Source: Dehalococcoidia bacterium (GTDB lineage: Bacteria; Chloroflexota; Dehalococcoidia; SHYD01). Taken from it: DNA of 64,000 nucleotides. Made by a program: the position numbers and the translations under genes. Location: contig OZ253478.1 in NCBI GenBank assembly GCA_965261835.1, positions 1,624,832 through 1,688,831 of the forward strand, written 5' to 3'. Numbering within the stretch: position 1 is the stretch's first letter; each line of letters begins with the position of its first letter. Below are positions 1,254 to 35,646 of this stretch, piece by piece. A model generated the notes under the pieces. The model did not search any database. It was given only the letters and a program-made list of their open reading frames with translations, and had not been told where the DNA came from.

Positions 1254-1554
1254 GCGCGACCTTTCAGTAGGTTACGTTGGAGTAAAGGCTGCCTCAGTAT
1301 AGCATTGAGGCCCGCGGGCGCTCAAGCGGAGGAAAGGGAAGGAGGGGTTATTGAGGTGAGTGCTGACGATGCGGCCGTGTATCAGTAGCTGGGTCCTCGC
1401 TATTCGCTATAATGGAGACAGGTGAGCGTCGCCCGCTGGCGGCTAGTGGGCGGGTACTTTACTACGATGACGTGGAGGCCAATGATGGCGCATACAGGCG
1501 ATAAGAGTGGCGAGACGGCCCAGGCGCTCGCAGCAGTGAAGGCGCGGTAAAGGC

Positions 1555-2016
1555 ATGGCTGATGCGTCTACCATCGAGCGTGCTCTGGCGGATCTGGACG
1601 CCGTGGTTACAGAAGTGGTGGCCTACTGCCGATCGCATGGCGACCAGGGCCGCAGCACGGCAGAAGGCTGGGTAGCCGGCGACCTGCTGAGCCACCTCCA
1701 CTACTATCACAATGTGATCGCTTGGGGCATCCAGTCGGTAGCGCTTGGGATGTCTCCCTGGCGTAACCCGTGGCTGGCAGACCAGACCAACGCGGTCTGC
1801 ATGCCGCTGCACGATGGGGAGAGCATGGAGGAGCTGGCGGTCCAGATGGAACTGGCGCACCGGCGGTTGCTAAAGGCCGCTCGTGCTGCGGTGAATCCGG
1901 ATGCCATTATCCACCTGCGGGCGGACGGGGAGACGGTGACGCTGCTCCGGCGGCTGACCGAGGCGGCCAATCACTGGCGGGGACACCTGGCGGACGTACG
2001 GGGTGGACGGTGTTGA
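1555..2016 (+). CDS. hypothetical protein (His-rich helical bundle, possibly DinB/MDMPI-like)
   Basis: 153-aa ORF with good high-GC codon usage. The LLSHLHYYHNV motif is reminiscent of the DinB/MDMPI_N four-helix bundle, but the assignment is weak. Confidence 0.45.
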   Translation: MADASTIERALADLDAVVTEVVAYCRSHGDQGRSTAEGWVAGDLLSHLHYYHNVIAWGIQSVALGMSPWRNPWLADQTNAVCMPLHDGESMEELAVQMELAHRRLLKAARAAVNPDAIIHLRADGETVTLLRRLTEAANHWRGHLADVRGGRC

Positions 2017-2126
2017 GCCGCCAGATTAGTACCGGCGGAATAGTTCTGTAACGGCCATGAATGGCGCCCCCACAATACTCTGCGTTCTGCTTTGAGGGAA
2101 ACTAGCGGTCTCAAGCGGTGGATAAT

Positions 2127-2153
2127 TTAGCACTCTTTTGCAACGAGTGCTAA
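2127..2153. promoter_or_regulatory. CIRCE operator (HrcA binding site), copy 1
   Basis: TTAGCACTC-N9-GAGTGCTAA, a perfect match to the CIRCE consensus. Confidence 0.85.
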
Positions 2154-2160
2154 GTTTCTA

Positions 2161-2190
2161 TTGACATTAGGCATGAGTGCTGTTTACTAT
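2161..2190 (+). promoter_or_regulatory. putative sigma-70 promoter (TTGACA-N18-TACTAT)
   Basis: Consensus -35 hexamer at 2161-2166 and near-consensus -10 at 2185-2190, immediately downstream of CIRCE-1. Confidence 0.45.
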
Positions 2191-2195
2191 TCATA

Positions 2196-2429
2196 TTGAA
2201 CACCAGTTGCGTTGAGGATCACGTAGGCATGCCAGACGCCAAGGCGGGCATCTATCTTAATACTCAAGGAAACATTGCTCGCCGTGTGGGAGTGGGCGTT
2301 AATGCGCCCACTGGAGCAGAGTGGGCGAAGGTCACCGATGACCCGAACCTGGGTATCCTTGCTATCCGCGAAGAGGCGAGACAGAAGAACCTGAGCCCGG
2401 CGCCAGACGCCATCAAGTGGGAGTTCTAG
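2196..2429 (+). CDS. small hypothetical protein between the two CIRCE elements (start may instead be the ATG at 2229, giving 66 aa)
   Basis: 77-aa ORF MNTSCVEDHVGMPDAKAGIYLNTQ..., bracketed by CIRCE-1 and its promoter upstream and CIRCE-2 downstream. Codon usage is slightly AT-richer than neighbouring genes. Confidence 0.35.
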   Translation: MNTSCVEDHVGMPDAKAGIYLNTQGNIARRVGVGVNAPTGAEWAKVTDDPNLGILAIREEARQKNLSPAPDAIKWEF

Positions 2430-2452
2430 GTTCTTTTTTTATGTGAGGCGAC

Positions 2453-2479
2453 TTAGCAGTCGCCCGATAAGAGTGCTAA
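2453..2479. promoter_or_regulatory. CIRCE operator, copy 2 (one mismatch)
   Basis: TTAGCAgTC-N9-GAGTGCTAA, located 117 bp upstream of the groES start. Confidence 0.8.
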
Positions 2480-2595
2480 TCATTTGCCAGTACAGGAGGA
2501 GGCTGGAACATCGAGAGAAACGCCGGCACTAAGTGCTTCAACTGTCAGAGTTAACTTAGTCAATAAATTGGGTTCAACCACAGAGGAGGTTTTAC

Positions 2596-2904
2596 ATGGC
2601 AATAGCTACGGAAGCGTCTATTGTGCCAATGGGCGACAAGCTGGTGGTGCGCCCGCTGGAGCGGGAAGAGGTCACCAAGAGCGGGCTAGTGCTCCCGGAC
2701 ACGGCGAAGGAGAAGCCTCAGGAAGGTGAAGTAGTGGCGGTAGGCCCCGGCCGTATGACGGACGAAGGCAAGCGGATTGCGATGGAGCTGAAGAAAGGCG
2801 ACCACGTGATCTATGCCAAATACGCCGGCACAGAAGTGAAGCTGGAGGAAGAAGAGCTCCTGATTCTGCGGGAAATCGACATCCTGGCCAAGGTTGGCGA
2901 GTAA
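2596..2904 (+). CDS. groES: co-chaperonin GroES
   Basis: [41 protein letters not shown]... is the typical Cpn10 sequence. AGGAGG lies 7 nt upstream of the ATG at 2596. Confidence 0.95.
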
Positions 2905-2917
2905 CGAGCGCACATAA

Positions 2918-4585
<1,668 letters not shown>

Positions 4586-4604
4586 AGAACTAGTTCATAA
4601 GAGC

Positions 4605-4640
4605 AGACGGGCGGCGCTAAGCGCCGCCCGTCTTGTTATA
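4605..4640. terminator. intrinsic terminator hairpin after groEL (bidirectional, shared with the convergent PBP gene)
   Basis: 13-bp perfect stem AGACGGGCGGCGC/GCGCCGCCCGTCT with a 3-nt loop, followed by TGTTAT. Confidence 0.7.
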
Positions 4641-4674
4641 TGGTGCACCCTGAGTGTCGAGCGCCGCGGTTGGC

Positions 4675-7551
4675 TTACCCTACGCCCAGGCCGCCCTTCA
4701 CGTTGACCGTAATCACCGGTGTCTGGGCGGAGTTGCCCGCTTTATCAAACGCCACGGCGAAGATGGAGTAGACACCGGGCGTGTGCCGCCACTGGTGGTA
4801 GTAGGGCGCTGAAGTGCTGCTACCAACGTTGTTGCCGTTAATGTAGAAGTCGACGCGGGCGATTCCGCTGTCGTCGTCGGACACCTCCGCTTGAATCCAC
4901 TGCTGCGAGTTTATGAACAGCGGATTCAGGGTAAACGTGGTGTTGGCCACCGGGGAGGTCAGCCTTATGGTTGGCGCCGTGTTGTCGATGGTAATGGGCA
5001 CAAAGAAGTGTGATTCGCGCCCCTGGCGGAAAACGAGCATCCGGATGGTGTACTGGCCGTTGAGGTCGCGGACATCATGGGCTGCCAACTGACCGTTGTC
5101 GACAGCGGTCGTCCGGGGCAAGCTTATCAGCGTCCACTTGGTAGGATACGCGCCCTCACCAATCTCCAAGAAGAACCGCTCCAAGCCGTACTCAGACACT
5201 GAGCCCTGAACTACCAAGACGTCGCGAACATAGGACCCTGGGGTCGGCAGGGTGATGGGCGTGCCGGTAGGACCCGCGCCCGCACTGACCGCCGTGGGCG
5301 GACGCTCAATTTCGTTCTCATCCATCCACTCATCCGCCTCAGGCGGAAGCAAGAGGAACACCCGCTCCTCGATGTCTTCCGGCGGCGTGTTGTCACTGGC
5401 CAGCAGGCCATTGATCCTATCGATCTTGAAAAGCTGATAGAGATTGTCCTTTTCAGTGGGGACATGCCCCTTCACAAAGATCTCCTCCCTTTCCTCCTGG
5501 CAGTGTTCGGTGGGCAACAAACCGGACGGCACGCAGACCGTGGCCGTCACGATGTTCGGCGGGCGCTGGAACTCGCTAATGGGCGTGCCCTCGAGCGCAC
5601 GGTTCATGAAGTTGAGCCAGATGGGCCCCGTAGTGGTGCCGCTGAAGCCTCCGGTGAGCTCAGTGTTATCAGAGTTGCCCATCCACACACCCACCGCCAG
5701 CTCTGGCGTGTACCCCATGGTCCAGAAGTCCCGCAGATCCTCAGTGGTGCCGGTTTTCACTGCGGCGGGCCGCTCGCCCTCCAATGTGAGGGAATTGCCG
5801 AAGACGGGCGCCCTGGCTTCATTGTCCGACAGGATATCTGTGACGAGGTAGGTATACTCCGGCGGGACAATCTGCTTGGTCTGCGGCTCCTTAAACTCCT
5901 CCAGGATGTTGCCGTCCACGTCGGTGACTTTCAGGATGGCAACGGGATCGATGCTCCGGTGGCCCAGCCGGCGCTCGTCAGGCGGGACAGGCACGCCCGC
6001 CATCAGCCCCTGGTTGGCGAACACGCTGTAGGCGTAGGTATGGTCGAGCAGCTTGACCTCGCCGCCGCCCAGAGTGAGTGAGAGGCCGTACCAGCCGGCG
6101 CGGTTTAGACCGGTGATGCCCATCTTGTGAGCAGTGCGTAGAACCTCATGAATGCCAGTGAACTGGATGGTCCTGATGGCTGGGATGTTCATCGAGTTGG
6201 AGAAGGCTTGCCGAAGCGATACCGCCCCGTTCTCTGACTCGTCAAAGTTTTCGGGAGTGTAGAGCGGATTGATGCCGTCATCGATGGTGATGGGAACGTC
6301 GAGCAGCATAGTTGCAGGATTCCAGCCCTGCATGAACGCGGTGAGGTAGGTGAACGGTTTGAATGAAGAGCCTGGTTGGCGCTCCGCAGTGGCAAGGTTC
6401 ACCTGCCCGTCTATGGAAGAATCGAAATAGTCGGCGCTTCCCACCATCGCGAGGATCTCGCCCGTCTCCGGAACAATAGCGACTAGCGCGGCGTTGTGGG
6501 CGTTTATCTCTTCCGATTTCGTCACTTGGTCACTGACGATCTGCTCGCCCATTTCCTGTAGGTCGAGATCCAGGGTGGTAGTTACTTCAAGACCACTCTG
6601 ATAAATAGTGCGGGCGCCATACGTCTCTAGCAACAGTTCGCGGACGTACACGACGAAGTGGGGCGCTTTAATATCGAACTTGGCGGCTTTGTATTCCAGC
6701 CTCAGATTTTTTGCGGCATTGGCTTCGTGCTGGGTGATGAACTCCTGGCGCACCATGAGATCCAGCACGGCGTGCTGCCGCTGCTTGGCGGCTTCCAGAT
6801 TGAGCAGCGGGGAATGGCGTGACGGCGCCTGAGGGAGGCCGGCCAGCATTGCGGACTCCGCTAGGTTAAGGTCCCGGGCCGACTTGGAGAAGTAGCTCTG
6901 TGCCGCCGCTTCGATACCATAGCTGAGATTGCCGTAGTTGATCTCGTTGAGATAGAACTCCAGGATCTGGTCTTTGGTGAAACGCCGGGTGAGCTCAATA
7001 GAGAGCGCGGCTTCCTTGATTTTCCGGACCAGGCTTATCTCGGCCCGTTCCTCCTCCGGAATGAAAACGTTCTTCACCAACTGCTGGGTGATGGAGCTCC
7101 CGCCGGAAACCACCTCCTGGTTACTCACGTAGTCCCAGGCGGCCCGCATGATGCCGCGGATATTGATGCCCTGGTTCTCGTAGAAATCGGCGTCTTCCGT
7201 CGCTATAGTGGCCTGGAGCAGGTAGGGCGATATATCGTTCAGCGGCACCGTGGTGCGTCGGCCGAACTGGGGGTCGAAGAGCTCGTAAAGGATGCGGCCG
7301 CGCCGATCATAGATCTTCGCGGTGCGCGCCACCTCTCGAGTGGCAATAGTTTCCGGTGACGCAAGCTCCTGGGTGATGTAGGAGTAGCCGGCAAAGGCGA
7401 CGCCGCCACCCAAGAGCACTGTCAGAATGCTGATGGCTACGAAAATGCCCAAGAAGGCGGCGAATAGCCTTGTGAACCTTACCATGACGTTGGGGCCGCT
7501 CTGCCGCGTACGCCTGCGTCCTCGTCTCTGGGTCAACCGTCGATTAGCCAT
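4675..7551 (-). CDS. class A penicillin-binding protein (PBP1A-type glycosyltransferase + transpeptidase) with a C-terminal Ig-like extension
   Basis: N-terminal TM segment. GT51 motifs (ATIATEDADFYENQGI, GGSSITQQLVKN). Transpeptidase SxxK (GSSFKP) and KTGT motifs. About 200 extra C-terminal residues of beta-rich sequence. Confidence 0.9.
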   Translation of the reverse strand: MANRRLTQRRGRRRTRQSGPNVMVRFTRLFAAFLGIFVAISILTVLLGGGVAFAGYSYITQELASPETIATREVARTAKIYDRRGRILYELFDPQFGRRTTVPLNDISPYLLQATIATEDADFYENQGINIRGIMRAAWDYVSNQEVVSGGSSITQQLVKNVFIPEEERAEISLVRKIKEAALSIELTRRFTKDQILEFYLNEINYGNLSYGIEAAAQSYFSKSARDLNLAESAMLAGLPQAPSRHSPLLNLEAAKQRQHAVLDLMVRQEFITQHEANAAKNLRLEYKAAKFDIKAPHFVVYVRELLLETYGARTIYQSGLEVTTTLDLDLQEMGEQIVSDQVTKSEEINAHNAALVAIVPETGEILAMVGSADYFDSSIDGQVNLATAERQPGSSFKPFTYLTAFMQGWNPATMLLDVPITIDDGINPLYTPENFDESENGAVSLRQAFSNSMNIPAIRTIQFTGIHEVLRTAHKMGITGLNRAGWYGLSLTLGGGEVKLLDHTYAYSVFANQGLMAGVPVPPDERRLGHRSIDPVAILKVTDVDGNILEEFKEPQTKQIVPPEYTYLVTDILSDNEARAPVFGNSLTLEGERPAAVKTGTTEDLRDFWTMGYTPELAVGVWMGNSDNTELTGGFSGTTTGPIWLNFMNRALEGTPISEFQRPPNIVTATVCVPSGLLPTEHCQEEREEIFVKGHVPTEKDNLYQLFKIDRINGLLASDNTPPEDIEERVFLLLPPEADEWMDENEIERPPTAVSAGAGPTGTPITLPTPGSYVRDVLVVQGSVSEYGLERFFLEIGEGAYPTKWTLISLPRTTAVDNGQLAAHDVRDLNGQYTIRMLVFRQGRESHFFVPITIDNTAPTIRLTSPVANTTFTLNPLFINSQQWIQAEVSDDDSGIARVDFYINGNNVGSSTSAPYYHQWRHTPGVYSIFAVAFDKAGNSAQTPVITVNVKGGLGVG

Positions 7552-7560
7552 ACCCGCCGC

Positions 7561-8310
7561 TTACTCCGACACCTTTTGCAGTACGAGGAAATGAGACAGC
7601 CCAAAGACGCGCAGGGGCGTCCGTTCCGCCCAGTAACATGCGCGGCGCAGCAGTCCGCCCAGTTTAGGGCGTCGTGCGACTACGTTGTCGAAACCGGGGT
7701 ACACGTACGTGTGCGCAACCTCCTGCGCCCCCTGGTTACGCCACAACCGGGTCAGGTCGCCGGTGCGGTAGGCGCGCACGTGGGGCACGAAGATACGCCG
7801 GATGACATCCGGGAACCAGTTAATGAAGGGCAGCAGGCGGAAGACGAAGCGCTTGCCCAGGTAAAAGCCGTGGGTTTCGAAGAAGTAGAGGCGATTGGGG
7901 ACGTAGATCACCACATGCCCGCGGGGACGGAGCACCCGCAACGCCTCTCGGACGGTGAGGGCATCATCATCCACGTGCTCCAGCACTTCATGGAGGAACA
8001 CCACGTCGAAGGAGGCATCCCGGAACGGGAGGTTTTCACCACGGGCAACCGAGAGGTTGGGGATAGCCTGACTGCCCTGGAGTACCCGATCAAACTCAAG
8101 GTCCACGCCCCAGACCGTGGGGCTAAACTCACGGAACTTGCGGACGTACATGCCCACGCCACAGCCGATGTCCAGAATACGTTTACCGGTAAGTGGCACG
8201 TGCTGATTGACCAACGCTAGGCGCCGGTCTTGCCCGTAACGCCATACATAACTCGGATGGCCCCTGCGGGCGGCCATCTCAGGCTGCTGATGCGTCACTA
8301 CATTACTCAT
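7561..8310 (-). CDS. class I SAM-dependent methyltransferase
   Basis: ILDIGCGVG glycine-rich SAM motif with Methyltransf_11-like spacing. Ends 9 bp upstream of the PBP gene on the same strand. Confidence 0.75.
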   Translation of the reverse strand: MSNVVTHQQPEMAARRGHPSYVWRYGQDRRLALVNQHVPLTGKRILDIGCGVGMYVRKFREFSPTVWGVDLEFDRVLQGSQAIPNLSVARGENLPFRDASFDVVFLHEVLEHVDDDALTVREALRVLRPRGHVVIYVPNRLYFFETHGFYLGKRFVFRLLPFINWFPDVIRRIFVPHVRAYRTGDLTRLWRNQGAQEVAHTYVYPGFDNVVARRPKLGGLLRRACYWAERTPLRVFGLSHFLVLQKVSE

Positions 8311-22292: not shown

Positions 22293-22369
22293 TGGTAGCG
22301 GAGGAGGGATTTGAACCCCCGGCCAAGGGCTTATGAGTCCCCTGCTCTACCACTGAGCTACTCCGCCAC
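22293..22369 (-). tRNA. tRNA with CAU anticodon (tRNA-Met; lysidine tRNA-Ile2 not excluded)
   Basis: Reverse complement GGCGGAGTAGCTCAGTGGTAGAGCAGGGGACTCATAAGCCCTTGGCCGGGGGTTCAAATCCCTCCTCCGCTACCA forms a cloverleaf with CAT in a 7-nt loop, a TTCAAAT T-loop and an encoded CCA. Positions 31-39 form an A.G mismatch. Confidence 0.75.
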
Positions 22370-22492: not shown

Positions 22493-22569
22493 GGCCCCGT
22501 GGTGTAGCGGCCAAACATGCCACCCTGTCACGGTGGAGATCGTGGGTTCGAATCCCATCGGGGTCGCCA
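22493..22569 (+). tRNA. tRNA-Asp (GUC)
   Basis: GGCCCCG acceptor arm, anticodon stem CCACC/GGTGG with loop CTGTCAC, TTCGAAT T-loop, encoded CCA. Confidence 0.75.
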
Positions 22570-27077: not shown

Positions 27078-27701
27078 ATGATCGCAATCATCGACTACGG
27101 GTCCGGCAATATCCGCAGCGTGCTGCGCGCCCTGGCCCACCTGGGCTACGACGCCCGGTTAACCGCCGACCACACCGCCATTGCCAACGCGCACGCAGTG
27201 GTGCTGCCAGGAGTGGGCGCCGCGGGCGATACCGTGCGAGCTCTGAAGGAGCGCGGACTGGACGACCTCGTGCGGCGGACCATTGAGGCCGACCGGCCCT
27301 TCCTAGGCCTGTGTGTGGGATTCCAGGTGCTCTTCGATACTACCGAGGAGGGCGGCCTGCAGCCCTGCCTGGGGATCATCCCCGGGGCCGTCCACAAGCT
27401 CCCACCCGGTCTGAAGGTACCACACATGGGCTGGAACCAGGTGATGCAGCGGGCTGAGTCCCCGGTGCTCCAGGGTGTTCCGGACGGCTCGGATTTCTAC
27501 TTTGTGCACAGCTACTACCCCAAGCCCACGCAACCCGAACTAGTGGCCGCCGAGACCAGCTACGGGATCGATTTCTGCTGCGCCATTGCCCGGGGCAACC
27601 TCTTTGCCACCCAGTTCCATCCTGAGAAGAGTGGGAGCCTGGGGCTGCACATCTACGATAACTTCATGAAGGCCACTCTTGGAAGTCATTCCCGCTATTG
27701 A
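27078..27701 (+). CDS. hisH: imidazole glycerol phosphate synthase, glutamine amidotransferase subunit HisH
   Basis: MIAIIDYGSGNIRSV..., catalytic GLCVGFQ, and FHPEKS. Confidence 0.93.
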   Translation: MIAIIDYGSGNIRSVLRALAHLGYDARLTADHTAIANAHAVVLPGVGAAGDTVRALKERGLDDLVRRTIEADRPFLGLCVGFQVLFDTTEEGGLQPCLGIIPGAVHKLPPGLKVPHMGWNQVMQRAESPVLQGVPDGSDFYFVHSYYPKPTQPELVAAETSYGIDFCCAIARGNLFATQFHPEKSGSLGLHIYDNFMKATLGSHSRY

Positions 27702-28392
27702 CCTGCGGGCCGGCCGCTGTGTCCGCCTCTACCAGGGCGATTACTCCAAAGAAACCGTCTTCTCCGACGACCCTCCCGCAATGGCCCGCCACTGGCAGGA
27801 GTTGGGCGCGTCCCGGCTGCATGTAGTGGATCTGGATGGGGCCAAGGAAGGATACGTGGTGAACGAGGCGGCTATTCGCGCTATAGTGAAAGCTGCAGAC
27901 ATTCCAGTGGAGCTCGGCGGTGGGGTTCGTTCATTGGAGACTATCGGGCAAGCGCTCGGCTGGGGCGTGGATCGAGTGGTGCTAGGCACCGCCGCCGTGG
28001 CTACTCCGGAACTGGTGCAGGCCGCTTGCCGGGCGCACCCCGGCGCCGTAGTGGTGGGCGTGGACGCCCGAGACGGCAAAGTAGCGGTGCGCGGCTGGCT
28101 GGAGACCACGGAGCAGACCGCGGCCGCGCTGGTGGCGCAGATGACGGAGTTGGGCGTGCCGCGCTTTATCTACACCGATATTTCGAGAGACGGCACCACC
28201 ACCGAACCGAACTTCCAGGCGCTGGCGGAGCTGCTCAGTACCACGAGCCGCCCCATCATCGCTTCTGGGGGCGTTAGCCAGCTCGAGCACCTTGAGCGGC
28301 TGGCACTGCTAGGTGCAGAGGGGGCCATTGTAGGGCAGGCCATCTATACCGGGGCGCTGGACCTGCCCCAAGCCGTGGCATTGGTTGCCTAA
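27679..28392 (+). CDS. hisA: ProFAR isomerase HisA
   Basis: (M)EVIPAIDLRAGRCVRLYQGDY... is the typical HisA N-terminus. TTG start overlaps the hisH 3-prime end. Confidence 0.9.
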   Translation: MEVIPAIDLRAGRCVRLYQGDYSKETVFSDDPPAMARHWQELGASRLHVVDLDGAKEGYVVNEAAIRAIVKAADIPVELGGGVRSLETIGQALGWGVDRVVLGTAAVATPELVQAACRAHPGAVVVGVDARDGKVAVRGWLETTEQTAAALVAQMTELGVPRFIYTDISRDGTTTEPNFQALAELLSTTSRPIIASGGVSQLEHLERLALLGAEGAIVGQAIYTGALDLPQAVALVA

Positions 28393-28418: not shown

Positions 28419-29639
28419 ATGACAATCTCTAGAACTGAACGTAATCTGTGGAGCGCCTTCATCGACGAGGCGAAGGCCAATCAGGTGTACGTTGCTTATG
28501 CGATCCGTGCCGTGAACGAGGGTTTCCACGAAGCCGCGGAAGTCTTCATGGAGGCCTCTGGCGCGGAATCCATCCATGCGCTTACACACTTCAGGGTTGC
28601 CGGCGAGGTGCGCTCCACCGTGGAGAACCTGGTGTCGGTTATTCAGGAGGAAGCCCGTGAGGCGGACATCATCTATCCTCGCCGCATCCGTGAGGCCGAA
28701 GCAGAGGGCCGTACGGACGCTGCGGAGAGCTTCAAGCTAGCCTGGCGGCGGGAACGCCACCACATTGACGCGCTAGAGGAGGTTTTGAACAGCATTCTGC
28801 AGCGTCGCCCCGATCTGAAGCCGCTGGTTGAGAAAGCGCAACAGCAACCAGAACGGGACGAGTCATATTCAGTACAGGAGCTCACACAGCTTTCCAACAA
28901 CGTGCCACCCAACATCCGCACCGAAGTGTTTGAGGAAAAGTCCCGAGTAATCGGTCTCCAGCGGCTGCGGGAGGTCGTGTTTGGTGCGCAGGACGGGTTG
29001 GTGAGCACCGTTGCAGTCGTCTCCTCGGTAGCCATCGCCACCGGTGAGAACACCGTGGTGATCCTGGCGGGCGCGGCAGCTGCCCTGGCCGGCATGGTCT
29101 CTATGGCGGGCGGCAGCTACCTTGGCTCCCGGGCCGAGCAGGACGTCAGCGTATCGGAGTTGGAGTTCGAGGCGCGGGAGATCAGAGAACACCCCGCCGA
29201 GGAGATGGCCGAGCTCATCGCGCTCTACCAACATGAAGGCATGTCGCGGAGCGAGGCCACGGACCTGGCCGAGCGCATCGCCTCCGACCGCCAAATCTGG
29301 CTCTCCACTATGGCGGAAAAGGAGCTGGGGCTGAGTCCCCAGCATCCCATCAACCCGGTCAAAGACTCACTGACCATGGGGATCTCGTTCATTCTGGGCT
29401 CCCTGTTCCCGCTGGCGCTCTATTTCTTTGTGCCGGCGCGGGCGGCGGTGCTACCCGCCCTATTAATCACCCTAGTTGCGCTGTTCGCGGTCGGCGTGGG
29501 GAAGGGCATGGTCTTGCATAAAAAACCGCTGATCTCCGGCCTGGAGGTCACCGCGGTGGGCACCCTGTCCGGGGCAGTAGGGGTTCTCATCGGCAACTTC
29601 CTTCCCCGGCTATTGGGCTTTGCGTCGCTGCCGGGATAG
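28419..29639 (+). CDS. mbfA: membrane-bound ferritin-like iron exporter (N-terminal erythrin/rubrerythrin-like diiron domain fused to a VIT1/CCC1 membrane domain; MbfA-like)
   Basis: N-terminus has paired ExxH motifs in a four-helix pattern (NLWSAFIDEAKANQVY..., ERHHIDALEEV). C-terminus carries VFGAQDGLVSTVAVVSSVA plus 3-5 TM helices, typical of PF01988. Confidence 0.7.
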   Translation: MTISRTERNLWSAFIDEAKANQVYVAYAIRAVNEGFHEAAEVFMEASGAESIHALTHFRVAGEVRSTVENLVSVIQEEAREADIIYPRRIREAEAEGRTDAAESFKLAWRRERHHIDALEEVLNSILQRRPDLKPLVEKAQQQPERDESYSVQELTQLSNNVPPNIRTEVFEEKSRVIGLQRLREVVFGAQDGLVSTVAVVSSVAIATGENTVVILAGAAAALAGMVSMAGGSYLGSRAEQDVSVSELEFEAREIREHPAEEMAELIALYQHEGMSRSEATDLAERIASDRQIWLSTMAEKELGLSPQHPINPVKDSLTMGISFILGSLFPLALYFFVPARAAVLPALLITLVALFAVGVGKGMVLHKKPLISGLEVTAVGTLSGAVGVLIGNFLPRLLGFASLPG

Positions 29640-29699: not shown

Positions 29700-31133
29700 T
29701 TGCGCGTTCGTCCTAGTCCCGACAAAGGACAAGCCAGCAATCCACGGCCGCCACGGCTGGGACGTCACCGAAGACGCACGCCGGTGAGCACCTTCAACGC
29801 GGCGGTCCGTTACCTGGAGGGCTTCATTCATGGCCCCGCGGAGCCCGCGTTATCAGCCGCAGGACGGCAGGCAGTCTGGGACCGGCGGCAGCAGACTATG
29901 GCCCGGCTCCTGGCCCGATTGGGCAACCCACACCAGATGTTCCCTTCGGTGCACGTGGGTGGTACCTCTGGCAAAGGGTCGGTGGCGGCTTATATCGCCT
30001 CAGTACTGCGTGCCGCCGGCTACCGCACCGGCCTCCACACCACGCCGTACCTAGAATCGGCCGCCGAAAAGATTGCGGTGAACGGCGTGCCCATCTCGGA
30101 AGGCGCGCTGTCGGCGCTGGTTGAGCGCGCCCGACCTCATCTGGACGCCTGCGACCCCACTTATGTGCAAGCGTGGACCGCGCTTACCTTCGCGCACTTT
30201 GCCCAGCAACAGGTGGACTGTGCGGTGGTGGAGGTAAGCCTGGGCGGGCGCTACGACGCCACCAACGTGCTCGCACCGCTAGTGTCGGTGATCACCAATA
30301 TCGGCTTCGACCACACCCAGAGCCTGGGGCAGCGGCTGGAAGAGATCGCCTGGCACAAGGCGGGCATTGTGAAGCCGCACACACCTCTAGTAACCGCCGT
30401 CAGGCAAACGGAAGCCCTCGGCGTCATCGTTGAGGAATGCAGCCGGCAAGAGGCGTCACTGTATCGGTTGGGCAAAGATTTCTCGTACGAGACGCGCTCT
30501 ATAGACCGCGACGGCGCCGTGCTCGATTTCCAGGGACGTTCCGGCAACTACCGCGACCTCCAGATTGGTATGACCGGCGCACATCAGACGGAGAATGCCG
30601 CTCTGGCCCTTGCGGCTGTAGAGGCGCTCCGGGAGAGCGGATATACCATCCCGGAAACCGCCCTGCGTGAGGGACTGCGCACGGCCCGCCTGCCGGGCCG
30701 CTTTGAAGTGGCGCACCAGCGGCCAACCGTGGTGCTGGACGGCGCACACAACCCGGAGAAGGCGCGGCGGCTGCGGGAGACCCTGGACGCCGTGTTCCCG
30801 GGCCGTCCGGTTACCTACCTGCTCGCAGTCGGAGCAAGCAAAGACCTGGGCGATATGCTGGACGCGTTGCTGCCCGGCGCTCAATCGGTAGTCTGTACCG
30901 AAGCGGGAGCACCGGGCAAACCTGCGCTGCCTGCCGCCGCGCTGGCCGCTGCGGTGCGGGCGCGGGGCGTGACCGCAGCCATTAACCCCGCGCCAGAAGC
31001 CGCGCTGAAATGCGCTCAGGCATCCTCCGTTGTAGAGGGTGTGCTGTGTGTCACCGGCTCCATGTACCTGGTGGGACGGCTACGCCCACATGTTGTACGG
31101 CAGGCCGCTCCCATCTGTGAGACGAGTCCCTGA
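29700..31133 (+). CDS. folC: folylpolyglutamate synthase / dihydrofolate synthase (Mur ligase family); true start may be GTG 29784
   Basis: P-loop HVGGTSGKGS, followed by Mur ligase middle and C-terminal domains (VLDGAHNPE). Confidence 0.88.
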   Translation: MRVRPSPDKGQASNPRPPRLGRHRRRTPVSTFNAAVRYLEGFIHGPAEPALSAAGRQAVWDRRQQTMARLLARLGNPHQMFPSVHVGGTSGKGSVAAYIASVLRAAGYRTGLHTTPYLESAAEKIAVNGVPISEGALSALVERARPHLDACDPTYVQAWTALTFAHFAQQQVDCAVVEVSLGGRYDATNVLAPLVSVITNIGFDHTQSLGQRLEEIAWHKAGIVKPHTPLVTAVRQTEALGVIVEECSRQEASLYRLGKDFSYETRSIDRDGAVLDFQGRSGNYRDLQIGMTGAHQTENAALALAAVEALRESGYTIPETALREGLRTARLPGRFEVAHQRPTVVLDGAHNPEKARRLRETLDAVFPGRPVTYLLAVGASKDLGDMLDALLPGAQSVVCTEAGAPGKPALPAAALAAAVRARGVTAAINPAPEAALKCAQASSVVEGVLCVTGSMYLVGRLRPHVVRQAAPICETSP

Positions 31134-31147
31134 AAGGAGTGCTCTAA

Positions 31148-31885
31148 GTGGAAGTCTTTAGCATCTTGTTCCCTGTCGCCATACTGGCCTTCCTGGCGCT
31201 GCTCGTCGCCCTGGGCGTCTTCATGATCTCCCGCTGGCGGGCAGGTACTCCCTTCGGCATCTCTTTCCGCACCATCGCGCTGGCCTACTGCTACCTCATG
31301 AGCGCGGTGAGCCTGCTCGTGCTGGTGATAGGGCTATCGATGGGGGTAAAAGCCGGCCTGTCCGATGTGCTAGGCCGGGGGTTCAGCTACTATGTAGCGC
31401 AAGAGATGCGCATGATGCCGGTCCCGGAGGACAAGGCCGACCCCAGCGTATCCTGGAACATGGAGATGCAGCCCGTCCCTCCTGAGGAGCAGGAGCAGAA
31501 CGCCCGTCGGGTAGAGCGCCAGTATAAAGAAGACCTCATCGCATCCATCACCACAGTAGTGGTAGGGGGCGTGGTGTGGGCTGTGCATACGTACGGACGG
31601 CGGCGGCTCCAGACCGAGGACGCCCTGGACGACTTCCTCAGCAAATCATACGCCACGACCATGCTGGTGATCTTCGGGCTGGTGGGCATGGTGAGCCTGA
31701 CAATGGGGATCAACGAACTGCTGCGCTACTACCTCATCGAACCGGACCAGTTCGGCCGCCGGCAGTCGCCCGGCGACGCCGTGAGCACGGCCCTCGTGTT
31801 TGTGCCCATCTGGTTTTACTATGTGCTGACAACCTTAAAGCGCGGCCGGGCCGAGGCCAGCGCAGAGTCCGCGGAGTCAATGTAG
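31148..31885 (+). CDS. hypothetical integral membrane protein (4 predicted TM helices)
   Basis: Hydrophobic segments at the N- and C-termini with a charged middle loop. Sits in the 14-bp gap between folC and hisF. Confidence 0.5.
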   Translation: MEVFSILFPVAILAFLALLVALGVFMISRWRAGTPFGISFRTIALAYCYLMSAVSLLVLVIGLSMGVKAGLSDVLGRGFSYYVAQEMRMMPVPEDKADPSVSWNMEMQPVPPEEQEQNARRVERQYKEDLIASITTVVVGGVVWAVHTYGRRRLQTEDALDDFLSKSYATTMLVIFGLVGMVSLTMGINELLRYYLIEPDQFGRRQSPGDAVSTALVFVPIWFYYVLTTLKRGRAEASAESAESM

Positions 31886-32662
31886 ATGCTAACCATTCGG
31901 ATCATCCCCTGCTTGGACGTGAAGGCGGGACGCGTGGTAAAGGGCGTGAAGTTTCGGGACCACCGGGACGCCGGTGACCCCGTGGAACTTGCGTCGTTTT
32001 ACAACGACCAGGGCGCCGATGAGCTAGTGTTCTACGACATCACCGCCTCCAGTGACGAGCGGCCCATCATGCTGGACGTGGTGGAGCGTACCGCAGACCA
32101 GGTGTTCATCCCCCTCACCATCGGCGGTGGCCTCCGCAGCGTCGAGAACATCCGCCGCATGCTGGAGGCGGGAGCGGACAAGGTATCGATCAACACTGCC
32201 GCGGTGCAGAACCCTCAGCTTATCGCCGACGGAGCGGAGCGCTTCGGTAGTCAGTGCATCGTGCTGGGGATGGATGCCCGCCGCGTGCCCGACAGCGATC
32301 CGATGCGCTGGGAGGTATTCACCCACACCGGCGCGGACGGCGGGCGCACCTCCGGGTTGGACGCCATTGCGTGGGCCCAGCAGGCCGTGGACCTGGGCGC
32401 CGGGGAGATCGTGGTGAACAGCATCGACGCCGACGGCACCAAGGCGGGCTACGACCTGGCGCTGCTGCGGGCTATCTCGGAGGCAGTTACCGTGCCGGTG
32501 GTGGCCAGCGGCGGAGCCGGCACCCTGCAGCACTTGGCGGACGCCGTCACCCAGGGCAAGGCCGACGCGGTGCTGGCGGCCAGCATCTTCCACTACGGCG
32601 ACTACCGCATCGCCCAGGCCAAGGAGTTCCTGGCGGACCAGGGCATCCCCATGCGGTTGTGA
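31886..32662 (+). CDS. hisF: imidazole glycerol phosphate synthase, cyclase subunit HisF
   Basis: [23 protein letters not shown]... and the C-terminal [10 protein letters not shown] motif. Confidence 0.95.
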
Positions 32663-32664
32663 CG

Positions 32665-33111
32665 ATGCCCGAGCGCAGCGTGGATTGGATGACCCAGGCG
32701 GAGCGGGATCTGGCGGTGGCGCGGCACAACGCCGCCGGCGAGTTTTATGAGTGGGCCTGCTTTATCTCACAACAGGCGGCTGAGAAAGCGCTGAAAGCCA
32801 CATTTCAGCATTTTCACCAGATAGTGTGGGGACACTCACTTTCGGAGATGTTCACGGCGCTGGCGCTCCTGGCCGAGGTGCCCGAAGCGCTCACCCAAAG
32901 CGCCCGGACCCTGGACCGTCATTACGTGCAGCCCCACTACCCCAACGGTTTTTCGGCGGGCGCACCGCTGAGTTACTATACTAGGAAGGACGCTGAAGAG
33001 GCGGTTGCTCATGCAGATGCGATCATACGGTTCTGTAAAGGTCTGGTCGCTCGACCTTCCGGAGGTCTTGCGCTGGCTCAGAACGGCTGCCCGCGCGCTG
33101 ATAGACGCTGA
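32665..33111 (+). CDS. HEPN-domain protein (putative HepT-like toxin of a HEPN/MNT pair)
   Basis: ATG sits 2 nt after the hisF stop. ARHNAAGEFYEWACFISQQAAEKALKA is a HEPN helix. RTLDRHY matches the Rx4HxY/Rx4-6H motif. Confidence 0.65.
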   Translation: MPERSVDWMTQAERDLAVARHNAAGEFYEWACFISQQAAEKALKATFQHFHQIVWGHSLSEMFTALALLAEVPEALTQSARTLDRHYVQPHYPNGFSAGAPLSYYTRKDAEEAVAHADAIIRFCKGLVARPSGGLALAQNGCPRADRR

Positions 33112-33382
33112 TGAAGCAGTGCTCCGCGTCATCCTGTTCGGGTCATTAGTGAAGGGGAACTACACCGCCCACAGCGATGCCGATATTTGTGTGATCCTGA
33201 GAGGCGCTGACCCGCGCCGCCAGATGGACCGGATACCCCAGTACAAAGCGCACTTTTTTGGTGCGCCGGTACCGGTGGACGTGCTGGTTTATGCTGAGGC
33301 GGAGATTGCGCAGATGCGGGCAGATGGCAGCCGCTTTGTCCGGGAAGCGGTGGACGAAGGCCTACTACTGGCTGAGCGCTAA
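33011..33382 (+). CDS. nucleotidyltransferase-domain protein (MNT-type, putative antitoxin partner of the HEPN protein)
   Basis: ILFGSLVKGNYTAHSDADICVIL is the minimal nucleotidyltransferase GS..(10)..SDxD motif. Overlaps the 3-prime end of the HEPN ORF in another frame; the start could be ATG 33011 or TTG 33005/33068. Confidence 0.65.
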   Translation: MQMRSYGSVKVWSLDLPEVLRWLRTAARALIDADEAVLRVILFGSLVKGNYTAHSDADICVILRGADPRRQMDRIPQYKAHFFGAPVPVDVLVYAEAEIAQMRADGSRFVREAVDEGLLLAER

Positions 33383-33443
33383 ATGACAAGTTGTGCCAGA
33401 ATAAAGTAGCGGCTAGAAGCGATCACGGACCGAGAGTCGTAGG

Positions 33444-34088
33444 ATGGCCATAGAAATCGATTTCACGAAGACGCCACTGATACCTGCCATAGCCCAGGAC
33501 GCCAGCAGCGGCCAGGTGCTGATGGTGGCGTACATGAACCGGGAGTCGCTCCAGCGCACTCTGGAAACCGGACAGGCCTGGTTCTGGAGCCGCTCTCGCA
33601 ACGAGCTGTGGCATAAGGGCGCTACTTCGGGCAACGTCCTCTCCGTCCGCTCGGTGGTGGCCGACTGCGACGCCGACACGCTGCTGCTGCTGGTAGATCC
33701 GGCCGGCCCAGCCTGCCATACCGGCGCGGTCTCGTGCTTCTACCACGCCGTCTCGCCAGAGGGGGGACAGCCGGTGCTGCGGGAGGCTCCGGAGGCCTCG
33801 GTGGCCGTCACCCGTCCCGTGGAGGAGCTTTTCGGCGTCATCGAGAGCCGCAAGGCGCAACAGCCGGAGGACAGCTACGTTGCCAAGCTCCTCTCCCAGG
33901 GTGTGAACCGCGTCGCTAAAAAGGTGACGGAGGAGGCCGGCGAGACGGTCATCGCCGCGGTGGGGGAGAGCGACCAGCGCCTCATCGAAGAGGTGGCCGA
34001 CCTCTGGTTCCACTCCCTCATCCTGCTCTCGGCCCGGGGCCTTACTCCGGCCGATATCTGGCGGGAACTGGAGTCTCGGCGGAAGTAA
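33444..34088 (+). CDS. hisI: bifunctional phosphoribosyl-AMP cyclohydrolase / phosphoribosyl-ATP pyrophosphatase HisIE
   Basis: N-terminal half [25 protein letters not shown]...CDADTLLL is HisI. C-terminal half ([11 protein letters not shown]...[13 protein letters not shown]) is HisE. Confidence 0.9.
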
Positions 34089-34414
34089 CCGGCCCGCTAA
34101 CCAACGCCGCCTGAGCCCCGCCAGCCAGCGATGGCATGCGCATTCGCCAAGGCGCCCCTGAGCGGATCGGCGCTCCTATCACACCATCGACCTCTAGGGC
34201 AGCGGCGCTTTCGAGCAGTTCAACGGTTTCCTGAGTGCTCAGGCGCGCACTGTTCGGGCCGGCATGTTAGACCTCGCATCTGACTCAGGTCAGTTCGACT
34301 CAGTGCTTTGGGGGTCGCGGCTGCACCTTCGTGGCGTTTTGGCGCGGTGGAGGCAATACACGGCCATACATGTAGAGCTGTATGCAGGTATACATGTTCA
34401 GAGAGCTCTATTCA

Positions 34415-34491
34415 CACGCTCGGATACTACGGGCAACCACAAGGGATTGCCGCTACGGGGGGACCCGCTACTCCGCACGCTCGGATACTAC
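34415..34491. repeat. two 16-bp direct repeats (CACGCTCGGATACTAC) 61 bp apart in the hisC leader
   Basis: Exact copies at 34415-34430 and 34476-34491. Small palindromes TACATGTA and GTATAC lie just upstream. Confidence 0.7.
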
Positions 34492-34545: not shown

Positions 34546-35646
34546 GTGGAGGCCTGTGTGGAGCTTGCTCACCTGGCGCCGGAGTGGATTCGCTCTTTGG
34601 TGCCCTATCAACCCGGTAAGCCCATCGAGGAGTTGGAGCGGGAATACGGCATTACCGACTCCATCAAGATCGCATCCAACGAGAACCCCTTAGGGCCATC
34701 GCCGAAAGCGCTGAAAGCCATTGAGGGCGCGCTCTCCGATCTCCACCGTTATCCCGACGGCGATTCCTTCTACCTCAAACAGGGGCTGGCCGAGCACTGG
34801 GGGATCAGCCGGGATAGGATCATCGTGGGCACCGGCTCCAACGAGATCATTGACCTCATCATCCGCACCTTCATGAAGCCGGGCGAAGAGGTGATTGTGG
34901 CCGAGCACGCCTTCGCCATCTACGCCATCACCACCCGGGCCGAGGGTGGCACGGCGGTACCGGTACCCCACAAGGGTTTCTTCTTCGATCTAGACGCCAT
35001 GGCCGCGGCGGTGACACCCAAGACCCGCATCATCTTCTTGGACAACCCCAACAACCCCACCGGCACGATCTTCTTCAAAGCGGACTTCGATCGGTTCCTT
35101 GCCATGGTGCCCGACGACGTCATCGTGGTGGTGGATGACGCCTATTTCGAGTTCGCCCGTGACCCGCAGTTTCCGGACTCGCTGCAGTACCAGCGCCCCG
35201 ACCGGCCGCTCATCACCCTGCGCACCTTCTCCAAGATCTACGGCCTCGCCGGTCTGCGGGTGGGCTACGGCATCGCCCCGGATTCCATCATCGACTCGCT
35301 GAACCGGGTGCGCCCGCCCTTCAACGTGAACGTCCTGGCCCAGGTCGGGGCGCTGGCCGCGCTGGGGGACGAGGAGCACCTGCAACGCACCCAAGAAGCG
35401 GTGTGGCAGGGTATGGACTACCTCACCGCTCAGTTCAACCGGCTGGGCGTGCAGTACGCGCCAAGTTGGGCCAACTTCGTCATGGCTGACCTGGGCGTAG
35501 GCACATTCCAGAAGCTGCTCTACGAAGGCGTCATTGTGCGGCCGATGGAAGGCTACGGCTATCCCGGCTACGCTCGGGTCACTGTGGGCGCCCAGGCCGA
35601 GAACGAGCGCTTCATCGCCGCATACGAGAAGGTGCGCCAGAGCTGA
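34546..35646 (+). CDS. hisC: histidinol-phosphate aminotransferase HisC
   Basis: Class-II aminotransferase pattern: NENPLGPSP, DxAY, and TFSKIYGLAGLRVGY (PLP lysine). Confidence 0.9.
   Translation: MEACVELAHLAPEWIRSLVPYQPGKPIEELEREYGITDSIKIASNENPLGPSPKALKAIEGALSDLHRYPDGDSFYLKQGLAEHWGISRDRIIVGTGSNEIIDLIIRTFMKPGEEVIVAEHAFAIYAITTRAEGGTAVPVPHKGFFFDLDAMAAAVTPKTRIIFLDNPNNPTGTIFFKADFDRFLAMVPDDVIVVVDDAYFEFARDPQFPDSLQYQRPDRPLITLRTFSKIYGLAGLRVGYGIAPDSIIDSLNRVRPPFNVNVLAQVGALAALGDEEHLQRTQEAVWQGMDYLTAQFNRLGVQYAPSWANFVMADLGVGTFQKLLYEGVIVRPMEGYGYPGYARVTVGAQAENERFIAAYEKVRQS

Follow-up and report, generated by a model that had tools for sequence, protein, structure and literature searches.

HEPN/MNT modules of Class II received their name from Yao et al. 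(2020; PMC7641770), who drew on 9,583 sequences, and correspond to the pairs of COG2250 and COG1708 in Makarova et al. (2009). They combine a HEPN protein of family PF05168, which lacks the motif RX4HXY and carries a conserved tyrosine, with a minimal nucleotidyltransferase (MNT) of family PF01909, in which the motif GSX10DXD is present. According to Yao et al. (2020), Class II modules had not been the subject of any biochemical study. Here we describe a pair of this kind in a 64-kb stretch of the genome of a Dehalococcoidia bacterium (Chloroflexota; GenBank assembly GCA_965261835.1, contig OZ253478.1, positions 1,624,832 to 1,688,831), referred to below as the window, in which a HEPN gene and an overlapping MNT gene are located between the histidine biosynthesis genes hisF and hisIE. 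The pair represents a type of module that is already known, in a housekeeping context of unusual stability, and leaves current concepts unchanged; the class has already been described, and the noteworthy part is the conserved his context together with a series of natural HEPN alleles.

In Escherichia coli, relA-mazEF is a toxin-antitoxin (TA) module inside a housekeeping transcription unit. On a river-metagenome fosmid, TA genes are interspersed among scattered his genes (PMC3948609). The pair described here resembles these cases in being a small two-gene module that is co-oriented with core metabolic genes and is probably co-expressed with them, but it belongs to another TA family and its position is conserved across a deep lineage.

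Class assignment of the pair

The HEPN gene (32665-33111; all features are on the plus strand of the window unless stated otherwise) encodes a protein of 148 amino acids (aa), and its ATG at 32665 is 2 nt past the hisF stop codon (TGA, 32660-32662). The MNT gene (33011-33382, within an open reading frame that spans 33005-33382) encodes 123 aa from an ATG at 33011. Searches with hidden Markov models confirmed the domains named in the original prediction, as the first protein matches PF05168 (E = 1.8e-27; 96 bits against a cut-off of 22) and the second matches PF01909 (E = 1.8e-11), and the predicted arrangement of a HEPN gene and an overlapping MNT gene between hisF and hisIE stands. The window has one copy of each gene, with no second HEPN or MNT in the rest of the 64 kb. 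A HEPN family profile built from 45 homologues matched solved structures with E-values from 1e-38 to 1e-42, including TM0613 (1o3u, 4e-42), TT1696 (1ufb, 1e-40), and 1wol, and matched the HEPN domain of sacsin more weakly. A homologue search for HEPN returned 521 sequences, most of them 129-132 aa in length, and the NCBIfam search returned no model matching HEPN.

The MNT carries G44-S45 (33140-33145), D56-x-D58 (33176-33184), and a third acidic residue, D90 (33278-33280), all of which are invariant columns. The motif thus reads G44-S45-x10-D56-A-D58, i.e., GSx10DxD; the original prediction had recognized this catalytic motif, but its version (GS-x10-SDAD) placed the spacing one residue off. 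A search of the PDB with the single MNT sequence gave no match, and a profile and the predicted fold were needed. The AlphaFold model (mean predicted local distance difference test score, pLDDT, 87.6) has as its nearest folds 2rff, the MNT antitoxins 8xeh, 8xeo, 7bxo, and 7ae9 from solved HEPN-MNT complexes, HI0073, and ANT(4').

With a PF05168 HEPN that has a conserved tyrosine and no RX4HXY, and a PF01909 MNT that has GSX10DXD, the pair is classified from its sequence as a Class II module of the TM0613/TT1696 type and not as the characterised HepT/MntA type VII. The solved Class II members (1o3u, 1ufb, and 1wol) belong to the same HEPN family and have a GSx10DxD MNT next to them, and the small size of the proteins (approximately 130 and 123 aa) is also in keeping with this class. 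Type VII HepT/MntA shares with the pair the combination of a HEPN-superfamily protein and a GSx10DxD minimal nucleotidyltransferase, a similar MNT fold, and an available HEPN tyrosine. However, the HEPN protein described here belongs to PF05168 rather than PF01934 or PF08780 and has no RX4HXY RNase motif, its gene is located upstream of MNT (the reverse of the type VII order) with an out-of-frame overlap of approximately 50 nt, and the MNT scores only 30.3 bits against the NCBIfam MntA equivalog NF047752, for which the cut-off is 60. Among the retrieved loci (labelled L001 onward), L095 contains MNT-HepT pairs in which MNT comes first, opposite to the HEPN-first Class II. The label of type II/VII TA or abortive-infection element in the original prediction was therefore an extrapolation, as the HEPN protein is not of the HepT/DUF86 family and neither protein has a meaningful match among defence systems (PADLOC returned no match for HEPN, and the MNT weakly matches candidate PDC models). 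A classical type II TA system was also considered and rejected, since the Pfam search found no DNA-binding domain (ribbon-helix-helix, helix-turn-helix, or AbrB) in HEPN or MNT and no promoter of the pair's own was detected.

Column counts over 89 relatives show which HEPN residues are conserved. The string RTLDRHY (32905-32925), which had been read as an Rx4HxY motif, is R81-TLDR-H86-Y87 and hence Rx4HY, and RX4HXY is found in 0 of the 89 relatives. At position 81, 72 of them have K or R, and position 86 is H in 42 (47%), Y in 25, and F in 13, while D84 is present in 88 and Y87 in all 89. A second motif, RYPN, is conserved throughout its length (R91 in 87 relatives, Y92 in 88, P93 in 89, and N94 in 86). 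TT1696 reads RYPDAH (Rx4H) at the position of R91, which suggests that R91 is the arginine of a degenerate Rx4-6H motif. His57 (codon at 32833-32835, in WGHS) is His in 85/89 relatives. Some PF05168-type (HEPN-T) proteins carry an "alternative histidine" (Anantharaman et al.; PMC3710099), and H57 is a candidate for such an active-site residue, although we infer the mapping of R91 and H57 onto that scheme. The conserved tyrosine of Class II HEPN proteins (Yao et al., 2020) may correspond to Tyr87 or to Tyr104 (codon at 32974-32976, in the loop G99-x-P101-x-x-Y104; Tyr in 69/89 and Phe in 15/89), and either is a candidate acceptor for nucleotidylation.

The gene order and the overlap, both of which had been considered unusual, proved to be the norm for the class. 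In a layout survey of 73 HEPN-MNT pairs, taken from loci in metagenomes and genomes, 72 have HEPN first and the MNT start inside the 3' end of HEPN, and the overlap has a median of 47 nt. Relative to HEPN, MNT invariably uses the +1 frame, and in most pairs, as in the window, it starts 346 nt from the HEPN start (+346). The HEPN-first order and the +1-frame overlap of approximately 50 nt are hallmarks of Class II and form a class-wide signature rather than an oddity of this locus. The segment RSYGSVxVxxLD at the N-terminus of MNT, which is encoded within the overlap, is conserved among homologues at the protein level, so that the upstream MNT start appears to be real.

Inheritance of the hisF-hisIE insertion

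The pair was found at the same place in 9/9 sequences of the species (the window, L001, L086-L091, and L180), which come from contigs that are 95-98% identical at the DNA level, some of them circular and 2.7-3.1 Mb in length. It also occupies the hisF-hisIE interval in four divergent Chloroflexota lineages (L092; L082, L083, and L084; L178; and L179). Relative to the window, the identity of hisF is 85% in L082 and 79% in L092, and that of hisIE is 65% and 56%, respectively. The gene order is hisF-HEPN-MNT-hisIE in L092 and HEPN-MNT-hisIE in L179, where the end of MNT and the start of hisIE share 4 nt. Other genes share the interval in L082, L083, and L084 (FolC-DUF5671-hisF-DUF4258-DUF2283-CN_hydrolase-AKR-HEPN-MNT-Zn-ribbon-Band7-hisIE, AKR being an aldo-keto reductase) and in L178 (DUF2283-AKR-HEPN-MNT-Asp-protease, followed further downstream by hisIE).

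Phylogenetic trees were calculated from concatenated HEPN and MNT sequences because HEPN alone did not provide resolution, and the his-linked pairs grouped as a single clade in 282/300 bootstrap replicates (94%). Within this clade, MNT identity is 54-61%, compared to no more than 44% beyond it. A further 80 metagenome loci carrying the nearest HEPN relatives include no his-linked case. The best reading of these data is that a single capture in the hisF-hisIE interval, in an ancestor of one Chloroflexota lineage, was followed by vertical descent. Unlike other Class II modules, which are patchy and mobile, the pair has a fixed and vertically inherited site in this lineage. The his-linked clade has been locked in a housekeeping cluster for so long that identity between its lineages has fallen to 47-65%, which implies that a supposedly mobile and selfish module can become a stable chromosomal resident.

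In many bacteria of other phyla, hisF and hisI(E) are directly adjacent, and the pair is therefore an insertion in the deep evolutionary sense. The original description of accessory DNA inserted among his genes holds to that extent, but the insertion is not recent, given the same site in four divergent lineages and their monophyly. Conservation of the two genes at this position across the lineage as a single fused protein had been named as a finding that would speak against the original prediction; the position is indeed conserved in the lineage, but with two separate genes and not a fusion. A scan of GTDB genomes with hisF yielded distant relatives only (identity of 72% or less), none of which carried the pair, and hence no empty site at close range. 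A mobile or accessory island was considered and fails as an explanation, since the pair is present in all same-species sequences and the four divergent lineages without repeats or mobility genes: no target-site-like duplication or direct repeats bounding the pair were found in a repeat search, and there is no integrase or transposase near it.

The GC content at third codon positions (GC3) is 0.68 for HEPN and MNT, compared to 0.84-0.88 for hisF and hisIE. This difference does not mark a recent transfer because in each his-linked lineage (L082, L092, and L179) GC3 of HEPN and MNT is 0.1-0.25 below that of the surrounding his genes. The low GC3 may result from weak codon selection or from dual-coding constraints.

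The hisF-hisIE interval has also received other genes. In L082 (1668-3999) and L178 (366-1425), DUF4258/DUF2283 (another TA-like pair), CN-hydrolase, and aldo-keto reductase genes are gathered upstream of HEPN-MNT, and Zn-ribbon and Band7 genes in L082 and an Asp-protease gene in L178 are located downstream. The interval is best read as a cargo-accreting zone in one his-linked branch, with further cargo arriving later in some branches. In several Dehalococcoidia metagenome-assembled genomes (MAGs), the gap between hisF and hisIE is instead filled by a HAD-family hydrolase of approximately 250 aa (PF00702; L003 6840-7646, L014 6811-7554, L044 6825-7583, and L074 6765-7505), which is a candidate histidinol-phosphate phosphatase. 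Class II pairs are co-directional among core genes elsewhere as well. In L085 (Thermosulfurimonas; 4001-7799), one HEPN-MNT pair is located before the gene for fructose-1,6-bisphosphatase and a second, truncated copy before cysS, and in L093 (a TARA contig; 1479-5715), a pair follows pheS-pheT.

Decay of HEPN and possible functions of the pair

Within the species, HEPN appears to be under relaxed constraint while MNT is maintained. The pooled ratio of nonsynonymous to synonymous differences between strains (pN/pS) is 0.47 for HEPN and 0.22 for MNT, compared to 0.05 for both hisF and hisIE. Codon 91 (32935-32937), which encodes the first residue of the RYPN motif, is CAC (His) in the window and CGC (Arg) in seven other same-species sequences, and the substitution R91H was found in the window alone. 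Other substitutions in the species are Y92N, Y92C, and R81L, the last of which occurs in L086 and L089. The allele on a circular contig of 2.70 Mb (L180) has a nonsense mutation (GAG to TAG) at codon 112, and in another allele HEPN is split into products of 54 and 71 aa (P0156 and P0157) by an apparent frameshift. All 13 MNT variants in a 90% identity cluster retain the catalytic core; 12 of them are 123 aa in length and one has an altered, extended C-terminus.

The length of the HEPN protein in the window is also a feature of the allele. The codon at 33061-33063 is TGA in L001, L086, L087, and L089, where HEPN has its ancestral length of 132 aa, ends at 33063, and overlaps MNT by 53 nt. The same codon is GGA in the window and AGA in L088, L090, L091, and L180, i.e., the stop was lost twice independently within the species, while intact 132-aa alleles also occur. 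The overlap of 101 nt in the window (33011-33111, in which the HEPN C-terminus is read in frame 0 and the MNT N-terminus in frame +1) therefore consists of 53 nt that are ancestral and conserved in the family and 48 nt that were added by the allele-specific change from TGA to GGA. The change at base 33061 is silent for MNT, since this base is the third of a Pro codon when read in the frame of MNT. A search for an exact match to the 148-aa HEPN sequence found none, probably due to the stop-loss allele or a differing gene call. Unlike its Class II relatives, the window allele thus combines R91H with a stop-loss tail, and with a substitution in the most conserved motif and an extension of 16 aa, the HEPN protein of the window is probably attenuated or inactive.

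We consider it probable (roughly 60%) that the pair is an old, vertically inherited Class II module in which MNT restrains HEPN as an addiction-type pair and that HEPN is decaying in the species. The pair would be transcribed by read-through together with hisF and hisIE, since no promoter or terminator was found; HEPN translation may be coupled to hisF termination, given the gap of 2 nt, and initiation of MNT inside the 3' end of HEPN would ensure that both proteins are made together. By analogy with type VII HepT/MntA, MNT is predicted to be a catalytically competent nucleotidyltransferase that binds HEPN and probably nucleotidylates one of its tyrosines (Tyr87 or Tyr104), curbing a harmful HEPN activity. 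Such restraint would turn the pair into a module of the addiction type, which is not easily lost, and asymmetric decay, with HEPN broken and the MNT core kept, is expected of a toxin and its neutraliser rather than of obligate enzyme subunits.

Several points weigh against this interpretation. Neither toxicity nor nucleotidylation has been demonstrated for any Class II HEPN (Yao et al., 2020; PMC7641770), and the HEPN protein is without the canonical RNase motif. The toxin-first order runs contrary to the usual logic, in which the antitoxin comes first; a host function would fit the long vertical retention under purifying selection equally well, and co-transcription is deduced from gene spacing alone. 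The his-linked clade is only moderately supported by MNT alone (135/200 replicates) and is left unresolved by HEPN alone (10/200). The pN/pS values are based on few substitutions (2-10 per comparison), and the split HEPN allele is known from called proteins only.

A possible, if unlikely, alternative is that HEPN and MNT are the subunits of one non-toxic cellular nucleotidyltransferase, possibly domesticated in the his cluster, with MNT as the catalytic subunit and HEPN binding the substrate or the nucleoside triphosphate (NTP), as in HI0073/HI0074 or the domains of kanamycin nucleotidyltransferase (KNT, ANT(4')). These enzymes likewise join a minimal nucleotidyltransferase fold to a four-helix HEPN-like partner or domain, and the MNT model resembles both HI0073 and ANT(4'). 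The missing RNase motif would be expected of such an enzyme, as would the near-invariant residues in HEPN helix 2 (E40 in 87/89, K41 in 89/89, and K44 in 88/89 relatives), which we take to resemble the NTP- or substrate-binding residues of the C-terminal domain of KNT. Retention at one locus while hisIE diverged down to 56% identity, with pN/pS below 1, is also consistent with an enzymatic role, and Makarova et al. (2009) left room for an enzyme that modifies antibiotics or substrates. On the other hand, KNT is a fusion of the nucleotidyltransferase and HEPN-like domains in that order and acts on aminoglycosides, whereas the genes described here are separate and in the opposite order, and neither a substrate nor a connection with the histidine pathway is apparent. 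Across phyla, the family has a patchy distribution and is often present in multiple copies per locus, beside other TA pairs (L095, L085, and L082). Within the species, HEPN is repeatedly broken or changed at the residues that are most conserved and decays independently of an intact MNT, while obligate subunits should decay jointly.

The same HEPN alleles may instead indicate that the pair is a functionless remnant in the source genome, where deleting it from within the his transcription unit would be risky or has yet to happen. We regard this as rather improbable. R91H in a residue that is 98% conserved, the read-through tail of 16 aa, the nonsense, apparent frameshift, and Y92N/C alleles of other strains, and HEPN pN/pS values of up to 0.6-0.7 in several pairwise comparisons all point in this direction. 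However, the MNT pN/pS of 0.22 and the catalytic residues that are intact in every variant do not suggest neutrality, the HEPN reading frame is open in most strains and keeps the invariant residues of the family except R91, and the survival of the module far exceeds that of neutral DNA. In an addiction-type module, as preferred here, the losses would be confined to the toxin, and the natural HEPN alleles (intact, R91H, Y92N, and nonsense) provide ready-made material for the first toxicity test of a Class II module, a matter of wider interest as Class II pairs are very abundant.

A longer shot is that the his-linked clade was co-opted by the host, such that expression solely together with the his genes links a shortage of histidine or amino acids to a HEPN activity under the control of nucleotidylation (e.g., growth slowdown or RNA turnover) or that the pair modifies a component of the his pathway. 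If true, co-option would account for the long stay of the pair between hisF and hisIE throughout a deep Chloroflexota lineage and would be the first physiological role for Class II modules. Finally, the original reading, a mobile cassette of the TA or abortive-infection kind that entered the his operon recently, is very improbable: although the lower GC3 of the pair and the wide but patchy occurrence of Class II modules (8889 representatives at 50% identity and E ≤ 1e-3, with retrieved loci from several phyla) would fit, the pair is monophyletic at one site in all same-species contigs retrieved and four divergent lineages, the GC3 deficit is a property of the genes themselves, flanking direct repeats, integrases, and transposases are absent, and PADLOC is blank for HEPN and gives weak candidate-model matches for MNT.

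The his cluster around the pair

Upstream of the pair, hisA (27679-28392) is followed by a rubrerythrin/VIT1 gene (28419-29639), a gene for a FolC-like (Mur) ligase (29700-31133), a gene for a DUF5671 membrane protein (31148-31885), and hisF (31886-32662; PF00977, E = 5.8e-83), which encodes the cyclase subunit of imidazole glycerol phosphate synthase and is the immediate neighbour of HEPN. Downstream, a spacer of 61 nt (33383-33443) separates MNT from hisIE (33444-34088), which encodes the bifunctional PRA-CH/PRA-PH enzyme (phosphoribosyl-AMP cyclohydrolase and phosphoribosyl-ATP pyrophosphohydrolase; PF01502, E = 5e-35; PF01503, E = 2e-18), and hisC (34546-35646) follows after a gap of 457 nt. 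The pair does sit among his genes, but the term "core amino-acid biosynthesis operon" used for this context is too strong, as the cluster is already loose: hisA and hisF are separated by three unrelated genes, and hisIE and hisC by the long gap. The order FolC-DUF5671-hisF is also kept in the distant MAG L082, and the interruption of the cluster by these genes is therefore old as well.

A scan from hisF to hisIE, including the spacer of 61 nt, found no promoter-like or terminator-like site. The Rfam scan of the window found no his leader, T-box, or riboswitch and only two tRNAs, the genes of which are divergent (22296-22367 on the minus strand and 22493-22566 on the plus strand). The spacer between hisIE and hisC contains a tandem repeat of 58 bp (34412-34491 in the window and 11735-12048 in L001), with 5.3 copies at a 95% match in L001 and approximately 1.4 copies in the window, where TRF finds no array. 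The hisC start offsets in L086, L087, and L088 vary by roughly one to two repeat units, which suggests strain-to-strain variation in copy number. In L088 (6139-6875), the DUF5671 gene that precedes hisF is broken into open reading frames of 88 and 157 aa, and this gene has a pN/pS of 0.47, equal to that of HEPN.

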